Origin: an uncultured bacterium
GTDB lineage: Bacteria > Omnitrophota > Omnitrophia > Omnitrophales > Abzuiibacteriaceae
DNA: 64,000 nucleotides
Direction: 5' to 3'
NCBI GenBank assembly: GCA_964387845.1
Contig: CAYLXA010000001.1
Location: forward strand, 290,627-354,626
Shown one piece after another: positions 12,494-56,412 of the stretch; the first letter of the stretch is position 1, and every line of letters starts with the position of its first letter. Both the position numbers and the translations under genes were made by a program. Below the pieces are notes generated by a model. It made no database searches, had not been told where the DNA came from, and saw nothing but the letters and a program-made list of their open reading frames with translations.

Positions 12494-12584
12494 CCCTCTC
12501 CCTTTGGGAGAGGGCTAGGGTGAGGGATTTCTATAAATCCCACCACCCTCATCCTAACCTTCTCCCTCTAAAGAGGGAGAAGGG
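12494..12584. repeat. REP-like nested-hairpin element (family 1: CCCTCTCCC-N3/4-GGGAGAGGG plus GGGTGAGGG arms), copy 1
   Basis: CCCTCTCCCTTTGGGAGAGGG, GGGTGAGGGATTT..AAATCCCACCACCC, CTCCCTCTAAAGAGGGAG. It overlaps the last 9 codons (IPSPSLEGEG*) of the class IV aminotransferase gene. Confidence 0.6.
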
Positions 12585-13381
12585 ATAAATCGTTTCATTA
12601 ACCTGCTTGTTATAACGCCCGGAATTTCCGTGCCGATTTGACGGCCATCGAGCGACCGCACCGGCACGATGATACCTGTTGAATTGGTTAAAAAGGCTTC
12701 ATCCGCATTAAATACATCGTGACGCGTTAAGAAGGATTCTTCCGCCGAAATACCCAATTCGAGCGCATATTTTAACACAAAACGGCGGACGACTCCATTC
12801 AGGATTCCGGCTGTGGGAGGCGTTTTCAACGCGCCTTCCTTCACCATGAAGAAGTTCCAGACTCCGGCCTCGCGTACATACCCGTCTGGCCCCAGATAAA
12901 TCCGGTCAAACGAATCGGTACAATCTAAAAAAGCAAGCAGCCCATTGACCAGATCGCCTGATTTTGCTTCCGGCGGAACGCTGTTTGAGAGGTTGCGCCT
13001 CACAGCGGAAGTTTTAAGATCAACGCCTTCCCGATAAATCTTTTCGGGATAAGAGCGCACGGATACGATCGTGAAAATATTTTTCTCCGAAACAGCCAGA
13101 CGAATTGAATGGTTTGGATTTTCTTTGGCGATTTCGGCAAGTTCTTTTTCAATCCGTTCACGTTCGGTGGGAACTTCAATCCCTGAAGTTTTTGCGGATT
13201 CAAACAAACGGTCCAAATGTTCATTCAAATGCAGAATTTTACCGCTCCGGGATTGCATGGTTTCGAAAACGTTTAATCCAAGCTCCGCCGGCGATATTAT
13301 AGGAAGCTCTGCCGGTTTTATCTGTTTTCCGTTGATAAAGAGAAGCATATCCGTAAGTGACATGGGAAAAGTATAAAGCAA
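12554..13381 (-). CDS. Class IV aminotransferase family protein (PabC aminodeoxychorismate lyase / IlvE-like)
   Basis: 275 aa, fold-type IV PLP enzyme length. Its C-terminal 9 aa are encoded by the REP element. Lies 24 bp downstream of the giant ORF. Confidence 0.65.
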   Translation of the reverse strand: MLYTFPMSLTDMLLFINGKQIKPAELPIISPAELGLNVFETMQSRSGKILHLNEHLDRLFESAKTSGIEVPTERERIEKELAEIAKENPNHSIRLAVSEKNIFTIVSVRSYPEKIYREGVDLKTSAVRRNLSNSVPPEAKSGDLVNGLLAFLDCTDSFDRIYLGPDGYVREAGVWNFFMVKEGALKTPPTAGILNGVVRRFVLKYALELGISAEESFLTRHDVFNADEAFLTNSTGIIVPVRSLDGRQIGTEIPGVITSRLMKRFIPSPSLEGEG

Positions 13382-13404
13382 AAAAACAGGGCTGACTATT
13401 CGGA

Positions 13405-16400
13405 TTATGCGGAGTAGAAAACCTGCATTTGCGCGCGGAACTTGCCGACCAAATATGCCGCGGCTGATAATACATGGTCCACAAACGCTTGGTTCCAGAT
13501 TATGACCTTGTCTGCGATTTTTTCAAGAAATGGAACGGCAACCGCGTCATCTGAAACACCGATAATGGCCATGGAAAGACCGAGATTTCTAAGTTCGGCG
13601 CGCGCCTTGTGGTAATCCTCAACGGGAACAATCCTATTTTTTGGATTTGCAATGGTTGCATTAATCTCGTCGATGACGCGAAGCTCTGCGCGGTTTGTCA
13701 CGATCACCATGTAAGAACCGTAAACATCCGAAAGATTCCGGCCAACCACAGCCAGACTTCCCTTTTCGCCGAAGAAAGCGTTACGCGTAAACACTTTCCC
13801 TTCCCGCATCTCTGATCGATTTTGAAGTGCTGTAACAATCTGATTGTCAAAACTGCGAGCGTTTGACACAATCCGGCGCATTTCGCTTCTCGCTACCGGT
13901 GCAATCTCAGTTTGCAAATCTCGGAATAACGGATTTTCTTTGACTTCAACTCTTCCTTTAGCAATGGTTTTTTCAGTCTTTGCAATGACGCGGAAATTAA
14001 AAACTGTTTCACCCGAAACTTCGGACTGCACCTTGGCCATAATTAGCGGGAGCCCCAAAACTTCGCTTTGCACCTTGTCTCCGATTTCAGTATTATTGAA
14101 AGCATCTGCTTGATTTAGAATCGACTTTTCAATCGCGCTTTGAAAATCGATTGGTTTGATTTTTTGAAGGCTTTCCGGCAGCAATTCCTTGTTAATTTCG
14201 CCTTCCAAATGAATACTGACATCATAACGGCTTCCAATTGTCTTTTGAGCGATTGTAAAATTCCGGTGTTCGCTTGTTAGCGATTTGACGCCCGCCTGCT
14301 CATAAAATTGAGCATCAATAACGGGAACCTCGCGGTCTGCGATCTCTTCTAAAATCCGGACCGCGCGATGAATATATTTAGCGTGCCGGAAACTTCTTCG
14401 CTCATTTTCGCTCAGAGTCAAACTCCTGTTTTTCATCTGCAATTCCGAATACCAGCGCCGGAATAACTTCATAATTTGAATCAGCGAAAGCGGCTGGTTA
14501 GCGCCGAGCGGATTGGATGAATTTTGTTCGTAAATTCTATTAATATCTGTCTCGCTTTGAGCTGTCCAGCTTGATTTTTCCTGATTTAAAACCGCTTTAA
14601 GTACCGGAATATAAAAACCTGTGTCACGCTCAATCCACCAATTAAGCACATAAAGAGCGGCGAAGCGCGCAGATTGGCGCAGCATATCCGGATTAAAGTT
14701 TTTAGGCGCTACTTCAATGAGCGGTTTCCATTCATCAACCGGAATAACCGGTTCAGCTAAGTATTGAAGCAGTGTTTCGAGGCCAACCTCATTTCCTTTT
14801 CCAAGCTCATCGGCTCTTGTCTTCCGGATTGTAAAATTAGGATGCGACAAATTTCTAAGAAGTTTTTGCACCGAACGCAGTTCTGATTTTTGGCTGCCGG
14901 CATCAGGCCCAGGCATCGGCTCTGTCAATTTTTGGAAACGTTCGGCCAATTCGGTTTCTGAGATTTTAAACATTTCGTCAACAAACGCTTCGGAACCGCC
15001 AAGCTCCCCTCCGTCTTCTCCGAATAAACGGACTTCGACTAACTCATGAAACGCAACGGCAAATCTTTCGGCCGATATCCTTTCTTCATCCGTTTTGAAT
15101 TCAAACTGAAAAGCGAGACGCGTATCCTTAACCGCTTCAAGCGTCATCAAGGCCATCGGATTATCCGCTTCGATCCATTCAGCACTCCCTTTGTTCAGAT
15201 TTTTGATCTTAACAGAAACATTTTTTGCTAGGGCGGCTTGCGCCATTTCGACAATGAACATCGCTGGACTCGCATGGACACCTTGCCGGTTCTTGACCGT
15301 AACATTGATCTCAATGCTGTTACTTTCCCCTTCCCGCAATTCCGACATGTTTCTATCAGTCGGCGTTACGGACTTTTTATATTCATTAATCTGATGATCG
15401 AGAAAAGCTTCGTAACTATCAATGGCCTGGCTTGTTTGCGCCAACCACTCTTCTTCTTCTTTCAATAATAGGCCATGTTCTTCTTTCATTCCCTTCAAAG
15501 CAGACTTTGCTTTTCGAAGCTCTGGTAATATTCTGAGATAATAATCGTTCGCTTCCGCGGCTAGAGAATTGCCTCGATCCGAAACTGACAAAATAAAGCT
15601 GCTGAAACGATTCAACAAAACTTCCGTGCGGCTCAATAAAATCTTAATTCTGAGCTGCTGTTCATCCAAAGCGATTCGCCTCGGTTTGATAAGAGAATAA
15701 TAAAGGAGCGCTCCGACTCCTATGCCTATCGCGCCCGCTGAAATACCGATAACGGTATAATTTCGTAATTCAGAACGATGTTTAGGCGGACGGGGAAAAC
15801 TTTGAAAAGGCCCCCTGCGCGCAGCGCGGACAGCCTGAATTCTCGCCGTCACTTCTTCAATAGTATCTAAGTCACCGGCTAATTCTGCGTTATGAAGCTC
15901 GACTTCCAATCTTGCCAAATCCGTCGAGTGATGCGATTGGTCTACAGCAAACGGAAGCTCGATCGGCTCCTCATTTTCCAAATCATTGCGCAGTTCCGAA
16001 CGGACACCGGATTTTTCGCGAGGCGGCTGTTCAGATTTCGGCGGAACCGGGATCCATCCTTCCCACCGGCGGTAAACATGCGTAGGCCGCGTCCCTACTT
16101 CATTGGAAATATTTTTACCGCGCACGCCATGAACCTGATGGGCTTCATCACGCCGTAAAACTTCGGCTCTTTGTGCACGAAAATAATCATCCGTAAAATG
16201 AGTGATTTCGCCGGTTTTTAAGCCCGCGCGGCGCCAGTCAATGTGCCCTTCGGGATGAACAACACGCATATCTTTCTTCAGTACCTGCAAAGCTCCGGAA
16301 AATGCGGCGTGATTAAACAAAATAACTGTTTTCCCGCGATACTGCTCGTTCATGCGTTTCCAAAAAGCGGCGGCGCGGATGATTAAATGGGCAAAACTTT

Positions 16401-19400
16401 CGCCATGCTCAGGTTTCGCCAAAACACTCCACTTTTGATAACTTCGCGCGGCCTTGAATTGTTCCCGGCCAAACTGCGCCTTAATTTGCTCATTGGTGAG
16501 CCCTTCCCATTCGCCTTGAAAAATTTCTTTTGTATCGGGATCAATCATCACTTTCAGTTCAATTCCTAATTTTTCACGTACCAACCGGATAAATGGTTCT
16601 GCCGTATCCCGCACACGCCCAAGCGGATTAATGATCACCACAAACTGATCCGGATTTGCTGTGATTTGGTCTTTAAACTTTTCAAATAATTTTTCAGCGT
16701 CAGCTTGCGCTTGCACGCGCCCTTTTGGCGTCAACTGCGCGCCTTCGTTATCCATACCGCTTCCCTGAAACCTCTTTCTCCCTGTTCTTAGCCCTTCCGC
16801 AATGATGTGAGTTTCTCCGTGGCGGATAACGTAAAGATCCAGATCAAGCGCCGGTGGGAAATAAGGCTCTTTATAAAAAAGCTGCCCGGTCGATTGATTG
16901 ACCCAAAAACCCATTTGTTGCAATGTTTCGGAAACATTTTTTCGCAATTCCACCCTCGCCTTCATTAATAAATCCGGCTGTATTGCACTGGTCGGAACCA
17001 CAAGTTTGCCGTTTTCCCAATAGACCAGCGCACTCAAAAACTGGAACATGACCGGATCATGTTTTCTCACAAAATCAGGGTCAAGCCAGTAAAGAGACTG
17101 GGCTTCAAAGAAAAACTCTCGCGCAGAAACAATGCTGTATCGGCTCAAAAACTGCGTTTCAATTTCTTCTTGAGAATAATCAAGCACCTGCTTCTTTTTC
17201 CCAAATTGCCTTTCAAGTGCCTGCAGCCTAGTCTCATAAATCCGTTTTGCAATCTGATAAACTGCTGTTTTATCGTGTGGAATGTTCACAATAGAGAGTG
17301 GTAAATTTTTATTCGCAAAATGCTCTAAGCGCTCAAAGTTAATCGGCAGCGCATACTGATTATGCTCAACGAGCGTTTCCGCAAGTTCGTGAGTCAGGAG
17401 CCGTTCTAAATAAGTAAAGTCCTTATCCCTCACCTTCAAAAATTCATCGCTCACTGGCCCGTCATAGGAGATCGGATGATCGCCCGCATAAAGTGAAAGA
17501 AAGATCGATTTAACATTGGACAGCACAGGATGAAGGGAGTGATAGGTAACGCCTCCCAAATGATCTCCGTTGCGTCTTACGATAGAACGCGCAATAAATA
17601 CTTGGGCATTGAGCATTTTAAAAAGCGGTGCAATTGCAATGCCGGCCCTATGGCTTTCAAGGAAATGATTGAGCTGGCCATATAACTTACGCGCTAATCT
17701 CCAGTCGGTTTCACTGTTTAATCCATGCAATACATCAGTCCGAATATGTGCAGAAGAGCCTTGTAGATAACCCAAAACAATTTGACGCAATTCCGCCCTT
17801 GCCCCCTTTGAAGAAACATTTTCATGATCCGCTGGGGCCGAGGGGCTTTCTTGTAGTTCTTGCAAAATTAATATCACTTCGTCCGGAAGTCCTAATGCGC
17901 TTAAAGCATCCTTGGCGCTTTCGAGCTGATGAAAACTGAAATGATCCGCAAATCTTTCTGCGCGAGACTTATTTCCCAGCAACCCTGTCAAAAATGGGAT
18001 AGCCAACTCACGAAAATGAATGCACCATGGCTCCGCTTGAAGAATCCGGTTGGTCAGATAAAGCAGTTTTTTAAGCTGTTTAAACGATAAATCGCTATCT
18101 TGAAGCGCGGCACGGATTGCGTCATGGCCTGCATCCAACAACATAGTCTTAGGGGCAGCACTTTCCGCTTCGGAATTCCTGAGCTCGGAACGTATGGCTC
18201 TAGATTTAATAGCAACGCTGCCGAGATACACATTGCCGCTCTGGTGATAAAGAAGCGGGTTTTCGTGGCCATCCATGCTGATAACGTCTCCATCCGCGAT
18301 ATCACGGCCGGCGATGAGCCAAAGATGCTTTTCCGGCTGGAACACCATGTCCGGAACGCCATAAACGGCCGAAATGCCTTCTTTCTGCGCCAGCGTTTCC
18401 GCATGCACTGAAATGGTCTTCGCTAAAATATGAACCCCTTTTGGAATCCGGTTAATCATTTCGGGATTCACTCTGTCCAAGATCAAAATAACGCCGTCAA
18501 CATCCGCTCGGGGATGAGAAACAAGTTCGCCCAAAAGCTTTTCCGCTGCTTCTATCGAATTAGCCGCCAAACCGCGAATCGCACCGCCGCTCACGCCATG
18601 GCCGCGCGCAATCGGCTGATTGTCAGTCGAGTCGGCAAATTCCGGATATTGATCCGTCACAAAATCATCATTGCTTTGGACAATCCATATCTTTCCGCGC
18701 TCAATCGTGAATTCAAACTGCTGGTTGTAACGGAAAATGTTCTTGAGCTTACGCGCGTACTCGAACACTTGTGCGTAAAGCTCCGGCTGCAATGCTTCAA
18801 ATGTTTGTTCATCCGGCCGGATTCGCTCACCATTTCCGATTAAAATGTAATTTTGGCCGGCACGGCTCATCAATTGATCGCCGATCGAGTGAAACCGAAA
18901 TTTACCTTGGAGCACGTCATGGCCGTCCGGAAGTGTTCTCAAAACTGCGTGCCCCGCGCCTGAAATTTTCCCGTCATCAGTCGGCTTTAAATTTCCGAAA
19001 ACGCCTTTCTGCAGAATAACGACCGTTCCCCACTCTTGCGAAATCTGATGCCGTGTACGATACGCGCGTGCCTCTTCGGAGTCCCACGATGCATAAACCG
19101 CTTCGACTGCCATCATGACCTGATCCATCATGTCGTTTGGAATTATTTTGCCGTGCCGCGCCACGATTGCTTTGCACTGTTCCACCACTGCCTTCATGCC
19201 GTCTGCCGACAAATCTTCCTTTTCTTTAACATTCAAAACCTGCTCAAATTCCGCCTCAGGAATACCGAGCACATTGATCGAAAATGACCGGATAAATTCC
19301 GCGTAGGTGTCATACGCAAACCACGCATCGCCGCTTTTTTGGGCAAGCGCTTCGGCTTCCGCGTCGTTCATGCCCACATTCGACACAGTAGCCAAAAGGC

Positions 19401-22400
19401 CGGGCAGCATGAAAGCAGAACCGCTTCGCGCGTACAAAATAAGCTTGAGGTCGGGATACTCGGAGTAGCGTTTGAGCCGTTCGATTTCGGCTGCGATTTT
19501 TTGACGGAATTCGTCCGACCTGAAAATGTCGGGTTTCGTCACTAACTTGGCGCTCAAGATGACACCCGGCGGTACGGGAATCCTCTCGTGCGTCATGCGG
19601 ATCAAGTTCAGGCCCTTTTTGCTCCAAAGCGAGAGAAGTTCCGGCCGTTCATCCGTTTCATTTTCGCCAAACCGGTACAAATGTTGCTCGAAATCATCCG
19701 GCCTTTCCGCGCCGGCATCCTCACGGATGGCTTCGTCCTGGCCTTGCGAAAGCGCAGAAGCGAGAACAGCATCAAATTTCATGAGCGCGCGGTCAAATGC
19801 CGTCGCGCCGGAATTCCGGATCAGCTCATCAATCACCGCGGCTTCAAGTCTCTCTTTTCCTTCAGGCGGAAAGTCATAAATTTGATAAGTCTGATCATCC
19901 TCTGTTTTGGTTTTGATTTTAAAGAGGCTGGTATGTTCGCGCCATAATTTTGCCAGATCGTGATAACCAACTTCATCCAAGCTGTATTGCATGGCCGCGC
20001 GCATGGTGTTATTTAGTTGCCGGGTAATTTTGTGGACTTCGGCCTCAAGCGTGTGGACCAAATCGTAGAGCTGCGACGCCTTAATGCTGCCCGAATCAAG
20101 CTCAACCATCAATTGATCAAAATCGACACCACCCAGCCCTGAAGCCTGAATAAACCGGCCGAGCGCAATGAGATTGGGCAATTCGCGCCGCAAATCGTCT
20201 ACAGAATTTATTTTTTCAATCTTTTCCTGGACGTGAGCAATCTTTTCCGAAGCTAAAATCGATAATTTCTCGCTCATTTCAACCAACGTGCGTAAATCAT
20301 ATAGATAATCACCTTCTTCATGCATATCGTTCCACTCCTGGTCTATATCATCCGCATCCTCATCGGCCGAATCTTCGCCGTCCCGCCCAATGCTCTTCTC
20401 TGCCTGTCCCAATACTTTTTTCTGATTTTCCTCTCCGGAAAGCAAAAACTCTTTAAGATCATTTTGCACTTTCACGATGGCGGAGAAAATGGCCGCATGA
20501 TCATCAGAATCGATCAACATAAGCAGCCGATCGTAATCCTCCCGCATAAACCGGGTAATGGCCGTCATTTTCTTTTTCAAGTACCCACCGTCACGCAGAT
20601 CTTCAGTTTCTCCTTTTAAGAAAGGAACGATCGTCGCGACGCGAGTTCCGAAATGATCCGCAAAAGCCAAATAAAGTTGAGTCATTAATTGAACGCGTTC
20701 ATAGTCAATCTCGGACACATCTTCATCCCGGTTCGCTTCTTCATAAATCGCGACTACTTCACGCTCCGGAATGTCCAGGATTTCATCCAGAAAAGCCTCC
20801 GGATCGCTTTTGCTGATTTTCCCTTTGGCCGCAAGCGCTTTGACAAAACGGTTCAAGAGTTTTGAATAAGTTTGAAGAGTCGCTGGATTGAAATCTTTTG
20901 TCATATCATCCCGCAGCAGAGTCCAGTTGCTTTCCTTTAAAATAGACTCATCAAGCGTCAACCAATAAGCAAGAACTCTTCTCGTATTCTCAAAGTCACT
21001 TCTATTCAAGTTTCGATGAATACCGTCTCTAAAATGGCTGAACCATCCGCGGCCAAACTCGCCGGGATAAGAGGCATTATTATCAAGCCGTCTTGAATAG
21101 CTGATAATACGGTCCTGCGAATTATCCGTAGAGACGCCGCCCTTGCGTTCGGCTTCGATGACTTTCATTAAATAAAAATAGGCCGCTCGGGCGTTTGGTT
21201 GATGGAGCAAATACAAGGACATCTGCGGATACTCTATGCGCTTTCTGCCTTCGCTTGGAATATCACGCACAAGGCCTTGGGCTGCCACAAAAGCAGCGGC
21301 AAGCGGATCCGCCGGTGAAACGCTCAGCAAGATAGAAATCAGTTCCCTGAAAAATTCGTGGCCTATGGTTCGGAGGTGCAGCAGAAGGTGAATCAGTTTA
21401 CCCAAGTCGTCAGGACTTGCTTGGCGGAAAGTTGCTTCTAAATCATGGTGGATATCAGCTTTGATGTAATGCTCATTAAAGTAAGCGGCTGCCAACTCAA
21501 GAAAAATCCGGTTCTCTTCCGGCGAATTTGTTTTAGAGAGGTAAATCGGAATCAAATGCTCTTTAAAGAAAGCATCCGTCATTCTATAGCGGTCGGGCGA
21601 CATCGCGCTCGACACGTACCACAAGTAGCTCTGTTTCTTATCCAGCGGTAAATCTGCTTTTAAAATAAACTCGCGAATCAAATTCTGCAGATGCTCTTTA
21701 GAATTTTTTTTAAGTAGGTCGATAATCGCCTCTTTCCTCGCCCCGACGGCTTGATTTTGCTCAAACGACAGGTGCTTGCCGCCTCTTCCAAAACTTAGTT
21801 TCATGAGTGTTTGGTAATCGCGCAGCGCTTTTTCGAATTCTTTATAAGACATTGGGTTTGTACGACCGTCCGACCTGAGCTCGGAACGTTTTTGGGCAGT
21901 AAGTGTTTTTAAATTCGGAAAAAGTGTGCGGAACGGTTCGCCGAAAAAGAGGCGGCGTCGGACAGCCTCTTTGCGGCGATGAATAAATGCGGCTTGAGTC
22001 GGAAAAATAAGATGCCTCGGCAGAGGAGCGTATTTTAAATAAACAGGAGCTGATGTATTGATACCAACATTTAATTCCGGGTCTTGCAAATTCGGCAGCG
22101 GAAGCGTGAGCACCGCATCCCGCAGAGGATTTTTACTGCGGTCACCGATTGTGCGAATCAGCATGCTGGCTTGAACCTCGCTTACATCCCACGGTGAACG
22201 GAATCCCAGCCGAACCCAGTCAGATTCATTACGCGATAAAACTTCCGCGACCAGTTTTTCTATTTTTTCATTCGAAATTTTTCGGCCCGTTTCAACACCG
22301 TTCTGATCCAGTTCGGGAACATCGGTCAGCATCCGGCTTAGATATTCCGTCATGGATTGTTTTCCGGTGCGGCGTTTTGTATCGTCCGGCCAAAATCTGG

Positions 22401-25400
22401 CGCCATACTTCAGTGAGAATATTTTTACGCCCAGATCTGTGGATCTGTAACCAAACTTCCAATCATGAACGTCTTGATCCAGCATGACCGATAAGGCCCA
22501 TAGCATCAAATTTCGATACGTGAAACCCGGATAAGACTGCGAGAATTTTCGTGTAGACGGCGGTATATCGGCCAAACGTTCTTCGGGCCATGCCGATACA
22601 ACACTAATGAACCGCTTGACATAATCGGCCAGCAGCTCGTTGTCCGAGGGTTTCTTGATTTCTTTCCCGTCAAATTCCTCAATATGAAGACCGGTCGGAC
22701 GCAGATGTATGACTTGCGTCAAGCCCAATGTCCAGTAAGCGTAAAATAAATCCTCTAAACCACCCGCAAGCAGATGATCCAGACGGCCTGCAAATTTTTC
22801 AAATTCGTCCAGGTCTTTGAAATAGGGATCGATTAACGTTGCCAAAAATTGGTTGAGGTTGCCGAATTTCTTGTCAAGGCCCCGGTTTTCCCATTCCCGG
22901 CGCAATTCGACGCCGAGCTCGCGTAATTCCCTATTCGAAAATCCTTCGGGCAATACCTTGCTCCAATAAATGCGCCTGTCCTCTGAGCCGCTTCTGGGCC
23001 AAAACCGATTGGAGTCGTGCGGGCTCAATAGAAACGTCAGAGCTTCAAGGATATCGCCTTCCGTCAGACTGTCATAAATCTTATTCGGAGAGCCCGCTTG
23101 ATCCATCAAATCGCGAATCACATCCATAACTTGATCGACTTTTGAACGTTGGGTGACCGCGGCAGTTTGCCTAAGTTCCGAACGGTTTTTCAGAATTTGC
23201 CGCCGTTCTTCGAGCGTAAAAAATTGTTTTTCGTAAGCTCTTTTTGCGGCTTCCCGGATTTTTCTATTAAACCGGTCTAAATCAGTTATTTCCTTCTTTA
23301 AAAAATCAAGCCACTGTTTTGGTTCAATGGTCATTTCCCCGAAAAATTCGTCGCTCAAAAGCATCAACAGCTGCACAAATGCGACTTTGTACAAAGGATC
23401 TTCCTGATCCAAGGCAGCCCGCATCGCATCTGATACCGGAAGTACCGGATTCAGATAAGGGAACAGGATTTGAGCCGGATAGGACGACCGGATTAATTCA
23501 TTCAATTTAGCTTCTACTTCAAAGTAAGCATGGGCCAACAACCCCTGCTGATCGCCTTCATACCCGCCCAGCGCATGAGCCAGCAAACTTCCGGGACGCA
23601 GGATAGCTTTCATCACATTAATCCAATAGAGCGATGTTGAGTAATCGTTTTCTCCCTTATAAAATTCGTTTGCAAACACATAGGCATCGGAATGGCTAAG
23701 TTCCTCCTCTAAAACTCCGCTCCGGTATAATTGTGCGACATACCCATAATCGCCCAAACTATAAAAATGCATTTGAATCCAATCTCGTAAGTAAGCGACG
23801 GGTGATTGATCAAAATTGGGAAATTGATACTGGCCCGTTTCATATAACTTTTTCAAATTTTGGTAATAATCAAAATTTTCTATCGAAGGAACGTCGGTGC
23901 CTTCAATAATGACAATATGCCTGTCTTTCGCAAATGCACTTAGGTAACTGTCGCTCTTTCCGTCTCTCGATTTGAGGCGAACGGTGTAAACCGGAACAAA
24001 CCGGCCTGCCGCAGAGCGCTGAGATTCCCTTTTGATAATTTTACCGACCAAGAGTCCGCTGCCGTTCACTATGTCCACGATCAGGCCACGTGGAATTAAA
24101 ATATCGTCCGCGATTTTTGTTCCTATTTTTCCGATATCATAAATAGAAATCAAATCTTTGTGGCCAAATGAAAAAGCGGCATCAAAATCCGGTGAAAGAG
24201 GCCTGAGAACCTGGTTGAATGTTTCAACGGCCTCAAGACGGTTTAAGTCATTTAGACTGGCTTTTTCGACTAGGTACTTTAGCTTCGGCCAATAGCTCAC
24301 CCAAAACCATTCCACAACATCAAAGCTGGGGCTATCCGGATTTAGGAGCCTAAACTCTCTGATTAAGTTGAGAATTTGATTCGCCTGGCTGGTGTTGAGC
24401 GTGATCTTTCCGCGCAAAGCTTTGATAATGCCTTGCGCATTTAAATTTTGAGTTTCCAAAAATTCTTTCAGAACATCTACGGTAAAAAAGCGTTTAATAT
24501 TTTTTACGCTTAATTTCGAAATGATGAGAGCATGCAGCGTTTGAACCGGATCCGTATTTACTGCTTGTGCCGTCTGATTGCGCAATTCAGAGCGGAGTAG
24601 CTCAGACTGCGGGGCAGCGGTTTGACCTTGCAACGGGATTTCCCAGAAATTGCGGGCGTTGCGGGCAGAATCGAAGAATGCTCTGGCTTTCGCACGGTTG
24701 CCTTTGGTTAACTCGAATAATCCAAAAATAATTGCGTAAGCTCTTTCCGTAAAGCTACGCGACTTTTTTAGCACAAAGTCACGGGCCAGCCACCGGTAAC
24801 GGAATGCGTCAAAATGATACTGAAAACCGGCTTCCGGATCGTGAATCTTTTTAATTGTATTGCGCGAGGCTCCCTGAGAGTAGTGCTGATCTAAATAATC
24901 GCGGCCGTAGTTGGTAATCCCTGCATAGATCTTCTTAAAGCCCGAACGCCGCGCGACATCTTGAAGAATCTGAATCGCTTCCGGCATCAGTTCATCGAAA
25001 TATTTTGCACCGTCATTGTTAAACTCGAAACTGTTGACCGTTAGTACCGGATCTCCATTGTCTTCCGATGCAATCATCCACATCTGTGCCCGATGCTGAT
25101 AGGCATCGCCTGAACCCTTGTGATCGATGTCCGCCAGGATAATTCCGTCGTCACTCAGGAGAGAGGGCAAAATCCAGGAGACAAAATGCTGCAGAGAAAT
25201 ACAATTTCCGATGGCTTCACTTGAAGTGAGAAAATCTATCGCGCCTTTCAGGGTCTTTTTGTCGTGAATTCTTATTCGAATTCCCTTTTCTTTATTTTCG
25301 TAAACCCTGCCCTTCTCAAATTCAGAAACATTGATGCCGATTGCCTGCATTTTTTTCTCAATGGCTGAAACATGGCCTGTTTTGCGAAGTCTTTCTGACA

Positions 25401-28400
25401 AATAATCACGCAATCTTTTGTAATACAAAATTCCGGGCGCAATATTGAGCCGCGTGCTGATCAAAAAAGTTCCTGGCGCGATAATTCCCATCAAAATAAA
25501 AAACAAGGCAGCATTTGAAATGAGAGGATAAATGGTAAAAACGCCGAACCCGACCAGAAACGCGAAAGCGGTCGGCGCCACCCAAGCATAAATGGGCCTT
25601 GGCGGCTTTCTAAGGCCTTTCAAAATGCGTGGATTCATCGTGACAATGTCGAGAGCATCTGCAATGCTGATCCCGAGTGCGCGCCGCACTTTGGCAATTT
25701 CGGAAATTTTCATGCGGCTCAGGCGCGTGGCTTTCATAAATTTCTGAACCGCCATGAGTTTGTCAAAAGCGTCTTTTTTAAGACTGTCCCGCACCGCTTT
25801 GTCTTCGGAAAGCCTGCGCATAGCTTCTTGATTTGAGGCTGACCAGACTACGGCAATAACTTCTTCCGTTTTTTTCCGCTGGTCAGGCGAAAGTTTATCC
25901 AAAAACTTAAGCACATTGACGAGATCGCCGTCTTTAACGGACACGTTGTACAGAATTTCTTCAAAAAAGTACCGCAAATTCCGGTTTGGACTTGGAAAAT
26001 ATTCGAGCAACTTTTCAAGTTTCGCGATTGCGCGCGGAGGATAGCTCATTTTCTGCGCAACGGGATTTTCATTAATTTCAGCGAGAATGGTTTCGATAAA
26101 TTTTGGATATGCGCGGAGCTCGGATCGCTGCTCATCGGTTTTTTTTGCGATTGCCCTCCTTTCAGACTTATGCTGAAACCACCACATTCCTCCAAAAAGA
26201 AGCAGAAGCGGCGGGATCAAGGAAGCATTGTCCGTAAGCCAGGCAACGGGCCCGGTCACAACAAGAACAAGCGAGGCTGTAATTGCCTTAAGAAAATATT
26301 GTTTCCGGAACTTAAACCACCACGTTTTATACTGAGTCGGAAAAATCTTAACGCGGTTCGATGGTTGAATTAAATCCGTTACATAACCAATCACTTCACC
26401 TTTTGGGAAAGCATACTCCAAAGGCTCGACCGGATACCCATAAACGTCTAAATATTGTTTTTGGGAAGGATCGGCATATTCGATCGATACAAGCTCGGGC
26501 TGTTTGCCGGATTTCTTAACATAATCGACAAGCCTCTTAGGCCCTTGATTGAGCGGATAAGCAAAATAAAGAACTGATTTAAATCCGCATGCCCGGGCAT
26601 AGTTCTCGATGATTTTTTGAATTCCCTTCGCCTTTGCATCAAAAATTCGCCCCTCCACACCGTCCACAAATAAAATCGGCTGTTCTTTTCCGTCTTGATC
26701 CTTATAAATCGCGGCGGCGATTCTGGCCCGTACCCGGCGGCCTTCGCGCGTACGGAAATCAATCGCTGAAATACTTTTGTTGTGCAAATAATTAAACGGG
26801 CCCAGCGCACCTTTTGTTCTCCGGTTTAATTTGTCAAGCCACGTGTTGCCGCGAAGCGACGCCGAAGAAAAGAAATCCTTTTGATTGGTTAAATCAAACC
26901 ACGGATCGCGCCGCCAAATCCGGGCTTCTACAATTGAGTCCGGTAAATTTCCCCAATCGTCAATCTTGGAGATACTTTTCTGAAGGTATTGATTGGCCTT
27001 CGCGGCATTGGGGTTTACATATTGGCCCAGCTCTTGCAGCAACTTTTTTCCTTCCTCGACAGGCAATTCACCTCTTTTATTCCTGGCCAATTCTTCTTTG
27101 TGCGCATTGAAAAATTGAGTGACCGACTTCTTACCCTCCTTTAAATTGGGCGTGTACTGTCCGGGCTTAAACTGGCGGTCTTCGGTTGAACCCAAAAAAT
27201 CCCTGAGTATTTTCTGGATAAACTCGGGGATGGTTTGATTTTCCGCGTCTTCGAATTCCCCTGCCGGTACTTTTTCAATATTATCCCCGCGAATTTGATA
27301 ATAGACTTTGTAATCCGGATTATCCCAATTTTCGTTGATGCCGACCGATTTGAGACGCTCCATGGTTTGAATCGCTGCCTCGGTCTGGTCAAACCATTGC
27401 CGGTAACTTCGCCGCTTAAGCATGGAGGCCAGATCCAACGCGGAAATTGTTTTCCACGAAAAAATGAACATTCGTTTCGCAAATACCGCCAAAATGTAAA
27501 CCAAGGCTGTGAAACCTGACGCCACAAACAAGCTTTCAATCCATCCTGCGGGATCAGAATTGTTGATCATTTCCCTAATATTTAAGCTTGCTAAATTTCC
27601 ATCCATCCAAAAAGAAATAGCGGAATAGAAAATTGTGAGCGCTGCGCGTTGAACCGAAGCATAGAAATATCCAATAACGCCAGTGAAGGAAACCGCGAGA
27701 AGATGCAGCCACGGGTTCTGAATGAGCGCCGTACGGGCGTGCGCAATCCGTGCGCGTTCTAATTTTTCTTCGTTAATTTTGTTCAAGTCAATCTTTAAAC
27801 TTTTAAACTTTTTCCACAAAAATTTCAGCTCCGGGAAACCGTCTTTCTCCATCCGCTCGTCGATTTCGGCAATGGTGAGATCTGAATTCTCACGCAGTTC
27901 ACTGGCTGCCTTTGGATTTTTGCTTTTTCCGTTTCCGGAAAAAGCGTTGCGCGTCAGAACACCGATCGTTTTAAACACCAGCGCGGTGTTATAAAGTGCC
28001 GACCGGTCCCGGATATCGTTTAACTCCAGCTCTATGTCATGCGTGTCCATGCCAAACTTTCCGGTTCCGATACCCCGCTTTAGAGCGCTTGAGCTGAGAA
28101 AACCCGGCTTGGTGTGATGTAAAACACTTTCGATATAATTTTGATCAACTTCCAAAGGTAAGCGCGGCCTTGGCCCAAACCATTGCATGTCACCGCGGAC
28201 AATCGACAAGAGCTGCGGAAGCTCATCAAGCCCCGTTCTGCGCAAAAACCATTCGTAAGGCGTAATGCTTTCATCTGAAATGTTGAAATCAAGTTTCATG
28301 GTTTTAATTTTTCGTATCACAATCGTCTTGCCCTGAAAACCGATTCGCTCTTGAATAAAAAACATGGGGCCGCTTGTGATAATTTTCCGGATAAAGGCAA

Positions 28401-38195: not shown

Positions 38196-38290
38196 TCGAA
38201 ATAGAACGCCCTCACCCCCTCCGGGCCTAAGGCCCGATAGGGCCGGAGGCTCACCCTACCCCTCTCCCAAAGGGAGAGGGAAAAACAAAG
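38196..38290. repeat. REP-like family 1, copy 3, plus extra GC hairpins
   Basis: CCCTCTCCCAAAGGGAGAGGG and CCTCCGGGCCTAAGGCCCGATAGGGCCGGAGG. The 38164..38448 plus-strand ORF in the track is a spurious translation of this repeat DNA. Confidence 0.55.
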
Positions 38291-38319
38291 GAAGAATCTG
38301 GCTTTGTGGAGGCGGCTCT

Positions 38320-38405
38320 CGGAATCCTTCAGAGCTTGGTCCCCCACCGTTTTGTTTCGCAAAGCGAGGCAGCGGGGGTCTGAAGGATGAGAGCGCAGGC
38401 GGTCG
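38320..38405. repeat. GC-rich roughly 90-bp element, copy B (see 34950-35050)
   Basis: Direct-orientation duplicate. Together the two copies bracket the ino1, ORF6N and AT-rich gene segment. Confidence 0.5.
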
Positions 38406-38455
38406 AGCCCGCGGGAGGCGAGAACCGCCGGCGCCGGAACAAAGCTAGATTCTGA

Positions 38456-43395: not shown

Positions 43396-43478
43396 TTTTT
43401 ATCCAGTGTTAAGTTGTAAGTGATAAGTTTTAAGTTATTCAATTACTTACCACTTATAACTTATCACTTACCACTATG
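43396..43478. repeat. Heptad-repeat palindrome, copy 2, beginning right after the sucC ATG (in its 5' leader)
   Basis: GTTAAGT TGTAAGT GATAAGT TTTAAGT ... ACTTACC ACTTATA ACTTATC ACTTACC. Confidence 0.55.
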
Positions 43479-46574: not shown

Positions 46575-47189
46575 TTAGACTCTCACTAAGTGAATCAGCG
46601 AACTGAGGCCCATCGTGAAAACAATTACGCCAAGAAGCGCGGAAAACACGGCTGAGACTCTTTGTGATTTTGGCCCGACCGTAATGCCCCAGCTGATTGC
46701 AAATCCCCAAAGGCCGTTTGCAAAATGGAAACACACGGCAGCAAGACCAACGATGTAAAACCAAAATGTAAACGGATTCGCCATAAGTTCCTGCATCCGC
46801 GCAAAACTCACTTCCGTTCCGTAAAGCGCGTGCATAATGCGTGTTTCATAAACGTGGTACAAAATATAGGCAAACGTAATCAAGCCCGTCCAGCGCTGAA
46901 GTACATAGAGAAAATTTTTTGTGTTCGGATAAGACGACAGGTTGGATTTTCCGCTAAACCAGACGTAGAAACCGTAACCGGCATGATACAAAATCGGAAG
47001 CGCGATAAAGATGATTTCAAGTGCAACCACAAACGGCAAACTTTGCAGGAATTCGATTTTTTCGTTGTAAGCTTCCGGGCCTTGTGTAATGAAGGAATTC
47101 GTGAACATGTGCTCCAGCAAAAAAGCGCCGATCGGAAATACGCCGGAAAGCGAGTGGAGCCTTCTAAGCCAGAATGAGGATTTAGACAT
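46575..47189 (-). CDS. Succinate dehydrogenase / fumarate reductase cytochrome b membrane subunit
   Basis: 204 aa, 5 predicted TM helices with conserved His. Immediately upstream of sdhA-sdhB. Confidence 0.6.
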   Translation of the reverse strand: MSKSSFWLRRLHSLSGVFPIGAFLLEHMFTNSFITQGPEAYNEKIEFLQSLPFVVALEIIFIALPILYHAGYGFYVWFSGKSNLSSYPNTKNFLYVLQRWTGLITFAYILYHVYETRIMHALYGTEVSFARMQELMANPFTFWFYIVGLAAVCFHFANGLWGFAISWGITVGPKSQRVSAVFSALLGVIVFTMGLSSLIHLVRV

Positions 47190-47191
47190 TT

Positions 47192-47276
47192 TTCAGTCGT
47201 AAGTTGTAAGTGGTAAGTCGTAAGTTAATAAAATGGTAAGTTTTTGCTTCTTACTTACCACTTATCACTTACGACT
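47192..47276. repeat. Heptad-repeat palindrome, copy 3, between the mdh stop and the sdh cytochrome b start
   Basis: CGTAAGT TGTAAGT GGTAAGT CGTAAGT ... ACTTACC ACTTATC ACTTACG ACTTACA. Confidence 0.55.
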
Positions 47277-48205
47277 TACAACTGGAGTTTACCGATACTT
47301 TCTTTCACATGCGCAACCGACTTTTGAAGCGCTGCTTGATCAGCGGCAGAAATTTTAAGCTCGATCACTTTTCGGACGCCGCTTTTATCCAAACTCACCG
47401 GAACACCGCAATAAGTACCGGAAATTCCGTATTCACCGTTCAAAAGTACGCAGCACGGCAAAATTCGGCCTGAGTCATTCAAAATTGCTTCGACCATTGC
47501 AACTGCCGAACTTGACGGCGCATAATACGCGCTGCCTGTTTTAAGCAAATTCACAATTTCGATTCCGCCGTCGCGCGTGCGCTGATTAATTGCATCGATT
47601 CTTTCTTTCTTGATGAGCTGTGTAATCGGAACGCCGTTCACGGTCGAGAAATCAGGGACCGGAACCATCGAATCGCCGTGGCCGCCCAACACCATCGCGC
47701 GAACGTCTTTCGGTGATACTTTGAGTTCTTCGGCAATAAAATACGCATAACGCGAGGAATCCAGAACGCCCGCCATACCGATCACGCGCTTTGAATCAAA
47801 CCCTGATTTCTTCCACGCCAGATAAGCCATGACATCCAGCGGGTTTGTGACAATAACGAGAATTGCTTTTGGAGAATATTTGACAATTTCGGTGACGATA
47901 CCGCCCACGATTTCGGCGTTTTTGGCCTGCAAATCATCACGGCTCATGCCGGGCTTTCGGGCGAGGCCTGCTGTGATCACAACGACGTCAGAATCTTTTG
48001 TATCAGCGTAGGAATTGGTGCCGACGATTTTGGTATCGAATTGCTCGAATGAGGAAGATTCCATCATATCAAGCGCTTTTCCCTGCGGCATTCCTTCAAC
48101 CACATCGACTAAAACGACATCCGCCAATTCTTTTTCAAGGATTCTTTGAGCGCAAGTGGCTCCGACGAAACCTGCTCCGACTACGGTCACTTTTGAACGA
48201 TTCAT
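47276..48205 (-). CDS. mdh: Malate dehydrogenase (LDH-like, NAD-dependent)
   Basis: KVTVVGAGFVGATCA Rossmann motif; VVITAGLARKPGMSRDDL; catalytic GGHGDSMVP. Confidence 0.85.
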   Translation of the reverse strand: MNRSKVTVVGAGFVGATCAQRILEKELADVVLVDVVEGMPQGKALDMMESSSFEQFDTKIVGTNSYADTKDSDVVVITAGLARKPGMSRDDLQAKNAEIVGGIVTEIVKYSPKAILVIVTNPLDVMAYLAWKKSGFDSKRVIGMAGVLDSSRYAYFIAEELKVSPKDVRAMVLGGHGDSMVPVPDFSTVNGVPITQLIKKERIDAINQRTRDGGIEIVNLLKTGSAYYAPSSSAVAMVEAILNDSGRILPCCVLLNGEYGISGTYCGVPVSLDKSGVRKVIELKISAADQAALQKSVAHVKESIGKLQL

Positions 48206-53412: not shown

Positions 53413-54531
53413 TTATTTGCTCAATTTCGCGGCGGGAGGAGAAGAAGAAAGCCAGATAACAGCCGCAATGAAGAACCCGGTCAAGAGCAAATTCAAGGCA
53501 AGGCTCATGCCGGCCAGTGCAATGGCAGAGCCGCTAATCCCGTAGCTTAAAGCAACCAATAAAACACCTGCACCGACTTCGCCGCGAGGGAACATCGCAA
53601 CGCTTACCGCGATTCGCTCGCGGAGAGTTGCTTCTTTGCCGTAACAAAATATCGGAAAACATTTGCCCACATTTGAGAGCACCGTTAAAAGCAGGACATG
53701 GATCACGGCCATTCCGATTGTGATTTCTCCAAGCTGAACTTTGGGAAGCGAACACCCGACCAAAAACATGAAACCCGCTTTAATCGTCGGATCCACCATC
53801 GATTCTATTTGCTGAGGCAAAGTTTGGCGCGAAGCAGCTTGCGGCGCATGATGATGGCCTGCATGAGGATGATACAAAACACAACCCAGCACGAATGCCG
53901 GCAAAAGCACCTCAAGATGAACTCCGGCTACAATTTCTACAAGAGAGCAAATGGCTACTATAATGATCGAATACAACAAAATCCAAAGATTGCCCACCGG
54001 GAATTTCAAACTATGCAAATACCGGTAAGCCAGAACCAAAAGAATGACAATAACGACTATGATCGCACCGAGTTCGGGTTTTGCGCCGACAATCATGATT
54101 TTCAGCGGAATCATTAACAAAATAGTATCTAAGTCATCAAAAATTGCCAATATTCGGACTTTTCGGAAGATCCAAGTCGCACCAAGACCTGCAGCTAATA
54201 ACATCGTAAACAAAACGCCGGCTGAAGTTGGTGCCGCAAAACGCCCCGCCAGTAGAGATTCTTGCCAATCCATTCCAAAAATATATACAAAATATGCCGC
54301 GCAAAAAATCCATGGAAAAGCAGCGGCCGTGGCGGCAACCAAATAATCTGTGGCGTAGGATTTGAGATTATTTTTATCAATTGTAAATTCAAGCCCTACT
54401 TGAATCATGATGTAGGCCAGACAGGTCATCGTTACCGCGTATAACAGCCCCTGAACTTTGGCCAAATCAAGGAATTGAGATATGCCCATCCCTAATACAA
54501 GTAATAGGCTGAAAATAAAAACTTTCTTCAT
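53413..54531 (-). CDS. Cation:proton antiporter family membrane protein (Na+/H+ exchanger-like)
   Basis: 372-aa polytopic protein with FAAPTSAGV and MFPRGEVG segments. Family assignment tentative. Confidence 0.5.
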   Translation of the reverse strand: MKKVFIFSLLLVLGMGISQFLDLAKVQGLLYAVTMTCLAYIMIQVGLEFTIDKNNLKSYATDYLVAATAAAFPWIFCAAYFVYIFGMDWQESLLAGRFAAPTSAGVLFTMLLAAGLGATWIFRKVRILAIFDDLDTILLMIPLKIMIVGAKPELGAIIVVIVILLVLAYRYLHSLKFPVGNLWILLYSIIIVAICSLVEIVAGVHLEVLLPAFVLGCVLYHPHAGHHHAPQAASRQTLPQQIESMVDPTIKAGFMFLVGCSLPKVQLGEITIGMAVIHVLLLTVLSNVGKCFPIFCYGKEATLRERIAVSVAMFPRGEVGAGVLLVALSYGISGSAIALAGMSLALNLLLTGFFIAAVIWLSSSPPAAKLSK

Positions 54532-54627
54532 TGTTACCCTGTCATGATTTTTAGATTACCACGGCACAAGCCGCACAATTTATCAAATGCGCGGCGCGTC
54601 GTTACTAAAGCAAGCTTCTCAAAAAAT

Positions 54628-56412
54628 CTACGAACGAACTTTATGATAGCGGCTTCTTAATAGCAAGAGAAAAGCAACATCTGCCGCTACCACGGCGGAA
54701 ACATACCCCACACCACCGCCGCCAAAACCATAACTATGAAGCCCGGCCGCTAAGACAAAATTCACGCCGTACCAGGCCATGATCACCGTCAAAAAGCAGA
54801 CCGCGCACCAAAACGCGGTCGCGAATGAATCCAGCCAGCCGGCAGTTCGCCCATGCATAACCGCCAAATACGCAAGTAACGCAATCAAAGCCCAGGTTTC
54901 CTTCGGATCCCAGCCCCAAAACCGGCCCCATGAATAATTCGCCCAAACGCCGCCCAGGATTGTTCCGGCAGCGAGCAAAATAAGCCCAATTTGAAGCGAA
55001 CGATAAAGAAAAGTAATAAGCTCATCTAACGTTTTATTATTTTTTTTCTTAAAAGCATAGTGAAACACAACCACATGCGCGACACCCCAATTGAGCAAAA
55101 ACGCACCATAGCCGAGCGTAATCGTCAGCACATGAACTGTGAGCCAAAAATTGCTGCGCAAAACGGGAACCAAAGGCGAAATCGACTGGTCCAAAACCGC
55201 CGGTAAATTTTCGCTGATCAAGAGCGCCAGAATGGATACGGACGCTGCGATCATCGGAATCAAATAGGACCTGTAAAAAGCAAAAAGAATGAGCGAGAAA
55301 AGCACAACACTCCACGACACCCAAATGACTGACTCATACATGTTCGTCACGGGCGGACGCCCGGCGATTAAACAACGCAGCACAAAACCCAACGTATGAA
55401 CCGCAAAAGCCGCGGTAAAAAATGAGAAAGCGATTTTATTGGCGCGTTTTTTATTTCTCAGTGTCAGCCAGATCAGAAGGCTGCCTAAATAAATTGCCCA
55501 TGCCGTATGAAACGGGCGAAATTTGAGATAGAAAAGCTCGTAATGAATCAACGTCCGGTCGATGATGATGTCGCGCGATTCCAGTAATTTTGTAAGCGCA
55601 TTGGCGAAAAATGAAGCAGATACGCCGGCCATTTCGATTTTTTCATCCCGCAAGCGGCCGAGGAGAAATGAAAGTGAGTTACTCGCTTCCTTCACATTCG
55701 CCGCGGGATACATGGTTTCCAAAATGGAAATACCGTGATCGCTCGCAAGCCCCTCAAGCGGAACCCACCCCGCCTGTGGATCATCGGGATGCGGAATAAA
55801 GCCCGGCATTTCTCCGCGCCCGATAGCCTGAAACAGACGCGCTCTGCTTCCGAGTTCAATCATTGCCTTTTCGTATTCGTTTAGTTTTTCTTTTCTGTCC
55901 TGCTTAGCCCTTACTTCACCTGTTCTTGCCGTAAAATTCAAATCGGCGAGAACAAGAGAAGGTGCGATTCTATTGTTTTCCAGATCCGCGGAGAAATCCT
56001 TTCGTAACTCGGGATTTGAAACAGGTAAAATAGCCTTCGCGCTCCAAATATCGGGGGCCGCAATCCATCGCCACACCAGTTCGGTTGGCTCCATTTTTTG
56101 AAAATGTGTTTTGCCGGTCATATAGAGGACGATTTCTTTCGCGAAACTCTCAAACGGCTTGACGCGGCCGCCCTGCTGAACCGGAATTCCACCCAAAACT
56201 TCGTGCGCATTACCTTCGGATTGATTGGCAAAGGATTGGGGCGAGAAAAACATCGCCAAGAGAATGACTAAAGAAAGACTGACAATAAATTTACAATACA
56301 CCCCCTCACCCTTTCCCTCTCCCTGAGGGAGAGGGGAATTGTTTAACTCACTCCCTCTCCCGCTTGCGGGAGAGGGCTGGGGTGAGGGTTGATTATTTAG
56401 AAATTGTCTCAT
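54628..56412 (-). CDS. ccsA: Cytochrome c biogenesis protein CcsA/ResC (System II haem-handling, W-rich domain); the N-terminal 40 codons are REP-encoded and the start is ambiguous
   Basis: WGRFWGWDPKETWALIALLAYLAVMHG (WWD domain). The ATG at 56412 overlaps the ccsB stop as TAATG, suggesting translational coupling. Alternative start near GTG at 56292 or M54. Confidence 0.75.
   Translation of the reverse strand: MRQFLNNQPSPQPSPASGRGSELNNSPLPQGEGKGEGVYCKFIVSLSLVILLAMFFSPQSFANQSEGNAHEVLGGIPVQQGGRVKPFESFAKEIVLYMTGKTHFQKMEPTELVWRWIAAPDIWSAKAILPVSNPELRKDFSADLENNRIAPSLVLADLNFTARTGEVRAKQDRKEKLNEYEKAMIELGSRARLFQAIGRGEMPGFIPHPDDPQAGWVPLEGLASDHGISILETMYPAANVKEASNSLSFLLGRLRDEKIEMAGVSASFFANALTKLLESRDIIIDRTLIHYELFYLKFRPFHTAWAIYLGSLLIWLTLRNKKRANKIAFSFFTAAFAVHTLGFVLRCLIAGRPPVTNMYESVIWVSWSVVLFSLILFAFYRSYLIPMIAASVSILALLISENLPAVLDQSISPLVPVLRSNFWLTVHVLTITLGYGAFLLNWGVAHVVVFHYAFKKKNNKTLDELITFLYRSLQIGLILLAAGTILGGVWANYSWGRFWGWDPKETWALIALLAYLAVMHGRTAGWLDSFATAFWCAVCFLTVIMAWYGVNFVLAAGLHSYGFGGGGVGYVSAVVAADVAFLLLLRSRYHKVRS
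56300..56390. repeat. REP-like family 1, copy 4 (two inner hairpins inside a CCCTCACCC/GGGTGAGGG outer stem), lying in the 5' end of the ccsA ORF
   Basis: CCCTCTCCCTGAGGGAGAGGG and CCCTCTCCCGCTTGCGGGAGAGGG. Translated as ...PSPQPSPASGRGSELNNSPLPQGEGKGEG... Confidence 0.6.

Follow-up and report, generated by a model that had tools for sequence, protein, structure and literature searches.

We analysed a 64,000-nucleotide (nt) stretch of DNA from an uncultured bacterium of the phylum Omnitrophota (contig CAYLXA010000001.1, positions 290,627 to 354,626; hereafter the window), in which a first reading of the letters alone, here called the original prediction, had pointed out four copies of a GC-rich palindromic repeat. 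Judged by their sequence, the four loci are copies of the BoxC/PIT/TM-ECO intrastrand triplex motif, and at three of the four the copies very probably are recent, frame-compatible insertions into coding sequence. The analysis establishes the identity of the motif, its presence in the window against its absence from relatives, the points of insertion, the conservation of frame and the location of one copy in a protein loop.

To our knowledge, BoxC/PIT/TM-ECO elements, known for about 30 years, have neither an established function nor an established mechanism of spread, and they have been described as strictly intergenic and mainly proteobacterial. What is new here is the Omnitrophota host and the in-frame location within genes, as opposed to "always intergenic" in Escherichia coli; the family itself and in-frame palindromes of other families were known. 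The loci extend BoxC/TM-ECO to Omnitrophota and many phyla, and to in-frame sites in housekeeping genes. Clean presence or absence at defined codons among close relatives offers a route to the mechanism of insertion and to measuring variation in protein length.

The four loci match the BoxC/TM-ECO triplex motif

Described since the 1990s (PMC4666352; PMC2869309), these elements were named first BoxC and later PIT (potential intrastrand triplex) elements and TM-ECO (PMC4666352). The TM-ECO pattern, 5'-CCCTCNCCC N3-6 GGGNGAGGG N3 GGGNGAGGG (Holder et al. 2015, PMC4666352), comprises a C-rich block, the G-rich block that complements it and another G-rich block able to lie on the hairpin as a third strand. 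It has 3610 copies in 262 proteobacterial genomes; E. coli MG1655 carries 23, all intergenic, with inverted pairs at five sites (PMC4666352). The hairpin part has been recorded 100 times in Enterobacter sp. 638 (PMC2869309).

Within the window, the hairpin CCCTCTCCC-N2-8-GGGAGAGGG has five exact matches (starts at 12494, 32663, 38260, 56315 and 56353) at four loci and none in 100 dinucleotide-preserving shuffles of the window. The copies first marked at 12494-12584, 32650-32705, 38196-38290 and 56300-56390 are thus real, and a one-mismatch search of the window for the hairpin revealed no extra locus. The sequences CCCTCACCC/GGGTGAGGG occur six times where 0.23 are expected, always beside CCCTCTCCC/GGGAGAGGG hairpins. 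As single strands, all four loci fold far better than shuffles (z of -3.8 to -7.3), with fold energies of -22 to -32 kcal/mol.

Three units follow the TM-ECO pattern exactly: 12494-12526 and 56353-56388 on the plus strand, and 56303-56335 on the minus strand. The minus-strand unit of copy 2 deviates solely in having a 2-nt second loop, and that of copy 3 has an interrupted third block. By inspection at the sequence level, laying GGGTGAGGG antiparallel to GGGAGAGGG gives compatible purine-motif triplets (G·G:C, A·A:T, T·A:T) at 9 of 9 positions. The 9-nt blocks, the three-block order and the loops of 3-6 and about 3 nt are the same as in BoxC/TM-ECO; so are the dispersed multicopy occurrence, the presence or absence between close relatives and the formation of inverted pairs in both orientations. 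Third blocks lie outermost in copy 4 and innermost in copy 1, and both arrangements appear in E. coli (Table 1 of the TM-ECO description).

Similarity is also detectable with blastn, which finds E. coli pairs resembling the inverted pair of copy 4. Of 5426 complete E. coli genomes, 3519 match copy 4 (56296-56395), 24 of them with at least 80% query coverage (73-79% identity), and the two matches that were inspected are intergenic (tauD/pseudogene and wzc/wcaA). An Rfam scan of the whole window at gathering thresholds gave no match. The repeats had been presented as a REP-like family, a view that gives way to the known BoxC/PIT/TM-ECO (PMC4666352, PMC2869309). Their description as nested hairpins suits copies 2 and 4, the only ones with outer CCCTCACCC/GGGTGAGGG arms around the hairpins, but not copy 1, which consists of two three-block units, or copy 3, whose unit is interrupted by a palindrome. 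The nested look arises because copies 1 and 4 are inverted pairs of units and copy 2 has an arm on either side of a single hairpin.

The window units also depart from the E. coli elements. Whereas all 23 MG1655 copies are intergenic, three of the four window loci lie in ancestral coding sequence, and the host belongs to Omnitrophota rather than Proteobacteria. Among the units themselves, one has the 2-nt second loop, one a diverged 11-nt block and one the interrupting palindrome.

The genes carrying copies 1, 2 and 4 are all on the minus strand. Pfam identifies Anth_synt_I_N and Chorismate_bind in PabB, Aminotran_4 in PabC, Cytochrom_C_asm in CcsA, and ResB upstream of ccsA. By its homologues, the organism belongs to Candidatus Omnitrophica/Omnitrophota. 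The translations originally given for the pabC, pabB and ccsA open reading frames (ORFs) across the repeats are correct, and the peptides predicted from the insertions include FPLPEGEGR, QPSPQPSPASGR / GSELNNSPLPQGEGK and FIPSPSLEGEG.

Copy 2 lies in a surface loop of PabB

32650 to 32706, minus strand: copy 2, 19 codons (SLTHASRFPLPEGEGRVRV); made up of one three-block unit, its second loop 2 nt long, and a residual CCCTCACCC arm

The pabB-like ORF (31459 to 32952, minus strand) reads ...IEKSLTHASRFPLPEGEGRVRVVKKRGDF... across this segment. In an alignment of 30 orthologues, window PabB has 19 residues (S83-V101) where the closest orthologue has GGK, a net gain of 15 codons. The frame is unbroken, as first proposed, and the segment, put then at about 18 residues, comes to 19 codons replacing three. 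The closest orthologue (P0002, locus L001; 87-90% identical) reads ...IVTER-GGK-VRRRRGDF and lacks the repeat, and outgroup proteins have NGK, SGR or RGA at the site. The segment is therefore an insertion, as had been suspected, and not part of the common PabB sequence. A further orthologue (P0003, L002/L003; 74-80% identical) has a longer segment at the same codon, and its DNA is a complete inverted pair. In sequence, the window copy looks like this pair minus one hairpin; the decay of E. coli TM-ECO pairs by loss of one hairpin has been described (PMC4666352).

An AlphaFold2 model of window PabB, built on the alignment, has a mean predicted local distance difference test score (pLDDT) of 89.9 and a predicted template modelling score (pTM) of 0.90. 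Its only stretch with pLDDT below 50, residues 87-96, is the loop between strands 77-83 and 99-105, which puts the insert at the tip of a surface beta-hairpin, in agreement with the loop location that had been anticipated. Because more distant orthologues lack the whole beta-hairpin, this region is dispensable. Nor is pabB a pseudogene, given that its ORF is intact, all of the 100+ invariant columns are kept and the model is confident throughout most of its length.

Around the insert, L002 is the closer match for the 10 nt downstream and about 30 nt upstream, and L001 for the farther flanks. This mosaic suggests a short gene-conversion tract at pabB.

Copy 1 supplies a stop codon at the pabC/purH junction

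12486 to 12586, minus strand: copy 1, the whole insertion of about 101 nt, where pabC and purH ancestrally overlapped; no repeat is present here in relatives L007 and L009
12494 to 12526, plus strand: canonical unit CCCTCTCCC-TTT-GGGAGAGGG-CTA-GGGTGAGGG, an exact TM-ECO match
12544 to 12583, minus strand: diverged unit CCTTCTCCCTC-TTTA-GAGGGAGAAGG-TTA-GGATGAGGGTG, recognised from sequence and fold

In the relatives, pabC and purH overlap by 14 nt (L007) or 11 nt (L009), and PabC ends in KQNGQN or HQDES before its stop. The window reads ...CGA TTT, then the insert, then AACAAAAATGGCAAAAATTAA. The insertion point lies directly after the Phe codon that precedes the ancestral tail, six codons ahead of the old pabC stop, and the old tail is recognisable 3' of the insert. 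It is still visible as AAC AAA AAT GGC AAA AAT TAA because it now serves only as the leader and start of purH, which copy 1 pushes 75 nt away.

The pabC-like ORF (12554 to 13381, minus strand) now ends ...KRFIPSPSLEGEG. Its stop is a TAG within the repeat (12554-12556) that arises where the second loop of the diverged unit meets its third block. This unit contributes 10 new codons and the stop in place of the last six codons. The claim that the repeat provides the PabC C-terminus and stop (IPSPSLEGEG and stop, counted as nine codons) stands, with the tail corrected to 10 codons. When block 3 of the diverged unit, GGATGAGGGTG, is laid antiparallel to GAGGGAGAAGG, inspection gives G·G, A·A or T·A at 11 of 11 positions. 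The sequence of copy 1 is identical in an independent Logan assembly (L010).

Copy 4 interrupts the 5' end of ccsA

56293 to 56406, minus strand: copy 4, the whole insertion of exactly 114 nt (38 codons, no stop), between ccsA codons 2 and 3
56303 to 56335, minus strand: unit 4a, CCCTCTCCC-TCA-GGGAGAGGG-AAA-GGGTGAGGG, exact TM-ECO pattern
56353 to 56388, plus strand: unit 4b, CCCTCTCCC-GCTTGC-GGGAGAGGG-CTG-GGGTGAGGG, exact TM-ECO pattern, forming an inverted pair with 4a
56410 to 56412, minus strand: ancestral ccsA start ATG, overlapping the resB stop (TAATG) with GAGGA upstream; same in L004 and L005
56299 to 56301, minus strand: alternative ccsA start GTG, which would give MYCKFIVSLSLVILLAMFFSPQSFA, a normal 25-residue signal peptide; aligns with the N-terminus of P0122, MRKVIAITTLFISALTVFSPQSFA

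The ccsA ORF (54628 to 56412, minus strand) begins MRQFLNNQPSPQPSPASGRGSELNNSPLPQGEGKGEGVYCKF... and runs through 56293-56406. Its closest relative (P0122, locus L004; 89% identical) begins ATG AGG AAA GTA ATT, with the ATG overlapping the resB stop; the window has ATG AGA, the 114 nt and then AAA TTT ATT, so that the insert ends before the codon aligned with K3 of the relative. The homologous CcsA signal-peptide core resumes after the insert (KFIVSLSLVILLAMFFSPQSFA). Copy 4 had been described as the first 40 codons of ccsA. It is in frame from the ancestral ATG, as that description implies, and the repeat itself accounts for the 38 codons between codons 2 and 3. The same 594-residue CcsA is present in an independent assembly (P0121, sources ncbi and lgn). 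A metagenome scan with the CcsA alignment returned, among the matches listed, mostly distant relatives (29-60% identity).

The start of ccsA bears on an alternative explanation, in which the genic copies are an artefact of ORF calling: the repeats would be effectively intergenic, ccsA would be read from the GTG at 56299-56301 and few pabC codons would be repeat-derived. We regard this as possible, if the less probable account. In the closest CcsA orthologue, 24 residues precede the SFA cleavage motif, in line with a GTG start in the window, and many N-terminal "intragenic" REPs have been judged to lie upstream of the true start (Di Nocera et al., PMC3733652). Long N-terminal extensions of apparent repeat origin occur in other CcsA orthologues, and some orthologues appear to start within repeat-derived sequence. 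However, the window has kept the ancestral ribosome-binding site (GAGGA) and the ATG that overlaps the resB stop, the inserted 114 nt contain no stop, and only 2 nt separate the G-rich block from the GTG. At the same place, the ccsA of relative L005 (10001-10170) carries 96 inserted nt from another palindrome family (GTCATTCCCGTGAATGCGGGAATC..., encoding IVIPVNAGI...AGMT), likewise in frame. Nor does the artefact explanation apply to copy 2, and the stop of copy 1 falls inside the repeat whatever the start. Initiation of ccsA at the ancestral ATG seems the better choice of the two starts. For annotation in general, ORF callers extend or truncate genes through such repeats, and start sites and C-termini in genomes of this kind need checking.

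Insertion into coding sequence and the points against it

Another possibility is that the segments are native coding sequence that resembles a repeat, or errors of metagenome assembly. Native proteins do contain Gly/Glu/Pro loops of low complexity, and assemblers can be misled by repeats. Nonetheless, 9-base blocks are identical at four loci where none are expected, orthologues lack the segments and independent assemblies agree. We rejected this explanation, already contradicted by these three observations, as highly improbable.

Insertion into coding sequence offers a coherent account of the three genic loci. The repeats would have entered this Omnitrophota lineage after its split from the nearest sampled relatives. 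According to the ORF list, non-coding DNA makes up about 3.1 kb in 62 kb; with about 95% of the sequence coding and neighbouring genes overlapping, insertions at junctions and in loops land in coding sequence. Survivors would be only those insertions that leave genes working. Copy 1 would have cut off the last six pabC codons and supplied ten others with a stop, copy 2 would have lengthened the tip of a dispensable PabB beta-hairpin by about 15 residues, and copy 4 would have placed 38 in-frame codons between the start codon and the CcsA signal-peptide core. Such insertions might be tolerated by virtue of the reading frames of the unit, five of six of which are stop-free by inspection and encode flexible Pro/Ser/Gly/Glu/Arg peptides (PSPxGRG, PLPxGEG, LSxxER). 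We infer that the segments are neutral passengers rather than functional.

Several observations weigh against this account. The copy counts and the split between genic and intergenic sites come from a 64-kb window of one genome. With five of the six frames free of stops, finding an open frame through a unit says little when taken alone. Neither a target-site duplication nor a transposase or other mobilising function turned up in the window or in the filled and empty pairs, and the term "insertion" consequently derives from comparison alone. At pabB, the closest relative lacks the repeat and a more distant one has it, which calls for two insertions, a loss or a short gene-conversion tract. At ccsA, the internal GTG gives a normal signal peptide, so the 38 codons may go untranslated. 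We infer translation of the repeat segments from their open frames. The proposal that repeats are translated in frame in three genes is accordingly upheld for the open frames and the frame-compatible insertions, and is qualified for translation and for copy 4, which may start at the internal GTG.

Copy 3 and possible functions of the repeats

38209 to 38281, minus strand: copy 3, an intergenic unit with a split third block, recognised from sequence and fold

Copy 3 occupies part of the 342-nt spacer that separates 38113 from 38456. It had been named as the only intergenic copy, and this is borne out, the other three being inside ancestral coding sequence. Its third block is split by a 32-nt palindrome at 38218-38249 (CCTCCGGGCC...GGCCGGAGG). 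With a 7-nt direct repeat, CTCACCC, on either side (38211-38217 and 38250-38256), the palindrome looks like an independent small element that duplicated its target site. Copy 3 adjoins a HEPN_AbiU2 gene, and a different gene occupies this place in relative L002. Two short ORFs run across the copy, 38164-38448 on the plus strand (94 codons) and 38162-38362 on the minus strand (66 codons). Both are probably artefacts of the stop-free repeat frames and liable to be mis-called as genes. A terminator-like T-run after copy 3 was looked for and none was found, and on this ground a terminator role for the copy was rejected.

The repeats might instead be selected elements acting on RNA or DNA, by stabilising mRNA, uncoupling cistrons, providing Shine-Dalgarno-like blocks or forming triplexes that pause replication or promote recombination. 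In support of such roles, the folds are very stable (-22 to -32 kcal/mol), two copies fall precisely on the junctions between operon genes, copy 3 adjoins a variable gene and the pabB flanks suggest a short recombination tract. The purine-rich strand of an E. coli TM-ECO oligonucleotide forms a triplex in vitro, and TM-ECO loci vary more between E. coli strains than control loci do (PMC4666352). Conversely, in vivo tests in E. coli detected no triplex and no promoter, terminator or polymerase-blocking activity (PMC4666352). Positions are not conserved, close relatives manage without a copy at each of the loci tested and the missing T-run at copy 3 points the same way. We therefore consider selected function an unlikely explanation for the copies.

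Relation to other palindromic insertions

In-frame insertion of palindromes had been put forward as uncommon, but it has precedents: Rickettsia RPEs and intragenic GTAG/CGTC REPs are documented cases (PMC10969869, PMC3733652), and the latter occur inside tRNA synthetase and DNA ligase genes, some supplying stop codons (Di Nocera 2013, PMC3733652).

Like the Rickettsia RPEs, the repeats studied here are palindromes lying in frame in unrelated housekeeping genes (pabB, ccsA and pabC), adding peptide where folding permits. RPEs differ in their size of about 100-150 bp, their conserved encoded peptide and their restriction to Rickettsia, whereas the units here measure 33-36 nt and occur in many phyla. 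The match to BoxC/TM-ECO and the far shorter units speak against membership among the RPEs, which we treat as an analogue, set apart by size and by the BoxC/TM-ECO pattern rather than by comparison with RPE consensus sequences.

REPs and the RAYT-mobilised REPINs are likewise short palindromes, often inverted dimers, mostly intergenic with some in tRNA synthetases and DNA ligase; the third G-rich block of the present units has no REP counterpart. Inspection of all units revealed no consistent GTAG/CGTC end tag, GTAG being found only in the second loop of copy 3 and of the L007 copy, and the units are for this reason not RAYT-type REPs. There was no RAYT gene among the seven window ORFs scanned with Pfam or among the annotated genes of syntenic relatives. 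We know of no RAYT gene for BoxC.

MITEs resemble the units in being small non-autonomous repeats with inverted ends, for which in-frame fusions with host ORFs are known. Unlike a MITE, the present units have no known parent insertion sequence, and the spacers between units are not conserved from copy to copy. No clear target-site duplication was seen at four filled/empty pairs, whose flanks are A/T-rich and diverged, and the units are thus not demonstrable MITEs.

Lineage-specific spread and distribution in other phyla

About 52 kb of syntenic relative contig (L002, L005 and L009 together) contain a single three-block unit, the one in pabB. Among 360 retrieved homologues, three PabB, one CcsA and no other PabC carry canonical units; native LLSxKERAEH false positives of the peptide regular expression were removed before this count. 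Because units are so rare in relatives and homologues, the set in the window looks like a recent lineage-specific burst.

A scan of species-representative genomes for the exact hairpin gave at least 120 loci. Among the matches listed, the hairpin occurs in at least 12 phylum-level groups, and the full three-block unit is present at 68 of the 120 loci. Hosts among these matches include Alpha-, Beta- and Gammaproteobacteria, Chloroflexota, Planctomycetota, Verrucomicrobiota, Cyanobacteria, Acidobacteriota, Nitrospirota, Bipolaricaulota, Zixibacteria, Ignavibacteria, another Omnitrophica and a Bifidobacterium bin. Among viruses, at least 120 IMG/VR contigs (including L213-L292) carry an exact match to the complete three-block unit; the 2015 description records no link of TM-ECO to phages or plasmids (PMC4666352). 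Our literature search for Omnitrophota-specific reports of such repeats returned nothing relevant.

In a six-frame test of 162 hairpins from the 120 loci, 55 were flagged inside long ORFs, many of which are spurious high-GC ORFs. All seven hand-picked ORFs spanning a hairpin that were checked with Pfam gave domain matches.

L104, L125, L130, L082, L029, L019: loci of in-frame units in other phyla

Pfam domains lie on both sides of in-frame units in MetRS, IleRS (Gallionellaceae), ValRS (Sphingorhabdus, an inverted pair), LigA (Planctomycetota) and the large subunit of a phage-type terminase. A PrmC-like methyltransferase (Vampirovibrionales) and an HODM-like protein also have in-frame units and Pfam matches. 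In the other Omnitrophica (L083, 1138-1181), a MoaC/MogA-like gene takes its final ten or so codons, ...PLTLPSPRGRGIG, and its stop from a unit, mirroring copy 1. In the MetRS of a betaproteobacterial bin (L034, 2111-2649), a DUF559 endonuclease-like domain between the anticodon-binding and tRNA_bind domains is bracketed by in-frame units.

A broader and rather doubtful reading is that BoxC/TM units form an actively propagating class that spans many phyla, lacks a known mobilising enzyme and repeatedly enters gene junctions and surface loops. If so, units may give stop codons, N-terminal extensions and loop residues to essential proteins such as PabB, MetRS, IleRS, ValRS and LigA.

Other hairpins of the lineage

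Several short spacers of the window consist almost wholly of other hairpin repeats. A second family, built of GTAAGTN heptamers, fills the short spacers 9517-9577, 43412-43475 and 47187-47284. At folC/trmE, relatives L007 and L009 have an ATGA stop/start overlap, and the window has a 63-nt spacer filled by a GTAAGTN-heptamer hairpin that supplies the folC stop (GGA TAA). Together with the hairpin-filled spacers, this junction indicates that insertion of palindromes where genes overlap is a general habit of the lineage that extends beyond BoxC.

Different palindrome families occupy the same codons in two genes, between ccsA codons 2 and 3 and in FolC after FDFxxK, which, on the broad and doubtful reading given above, hints at a shared targeting or repair mechanism rather than tolerance alone. 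If this is true, the mechanism could be deduced from the cleanly filled and empty alleles of these Omnitrophota populations. The FolC of relative L007 (about 7017-7067) has an in-frame unit with an arm on each side (PPHPPLSPFKGERGRGE), that of L009 (12362-13819) has inserts of other repeat families (VILSEAKNQRS..., SEAKQS...APRNDW) at the same codon, and window FolC has no insert.

Further hairpins with 7-nt periodicity are found at 4255-4338 (AGGGTCA-type), 34270-34345 (AAATTCA-type) and 33515-33592 (CAAGCTG-type). The last lies in frame inside a DUF1015 ORF (KLQAAGSKLQTSSLKPEAGSLQ), and the L002 orthologue shares it. Elsewhere in the window, the minus strand carries a 5975-codon ORF (13405-31332), and the counterparts of this ORF in relatives are without Pfam annotation.

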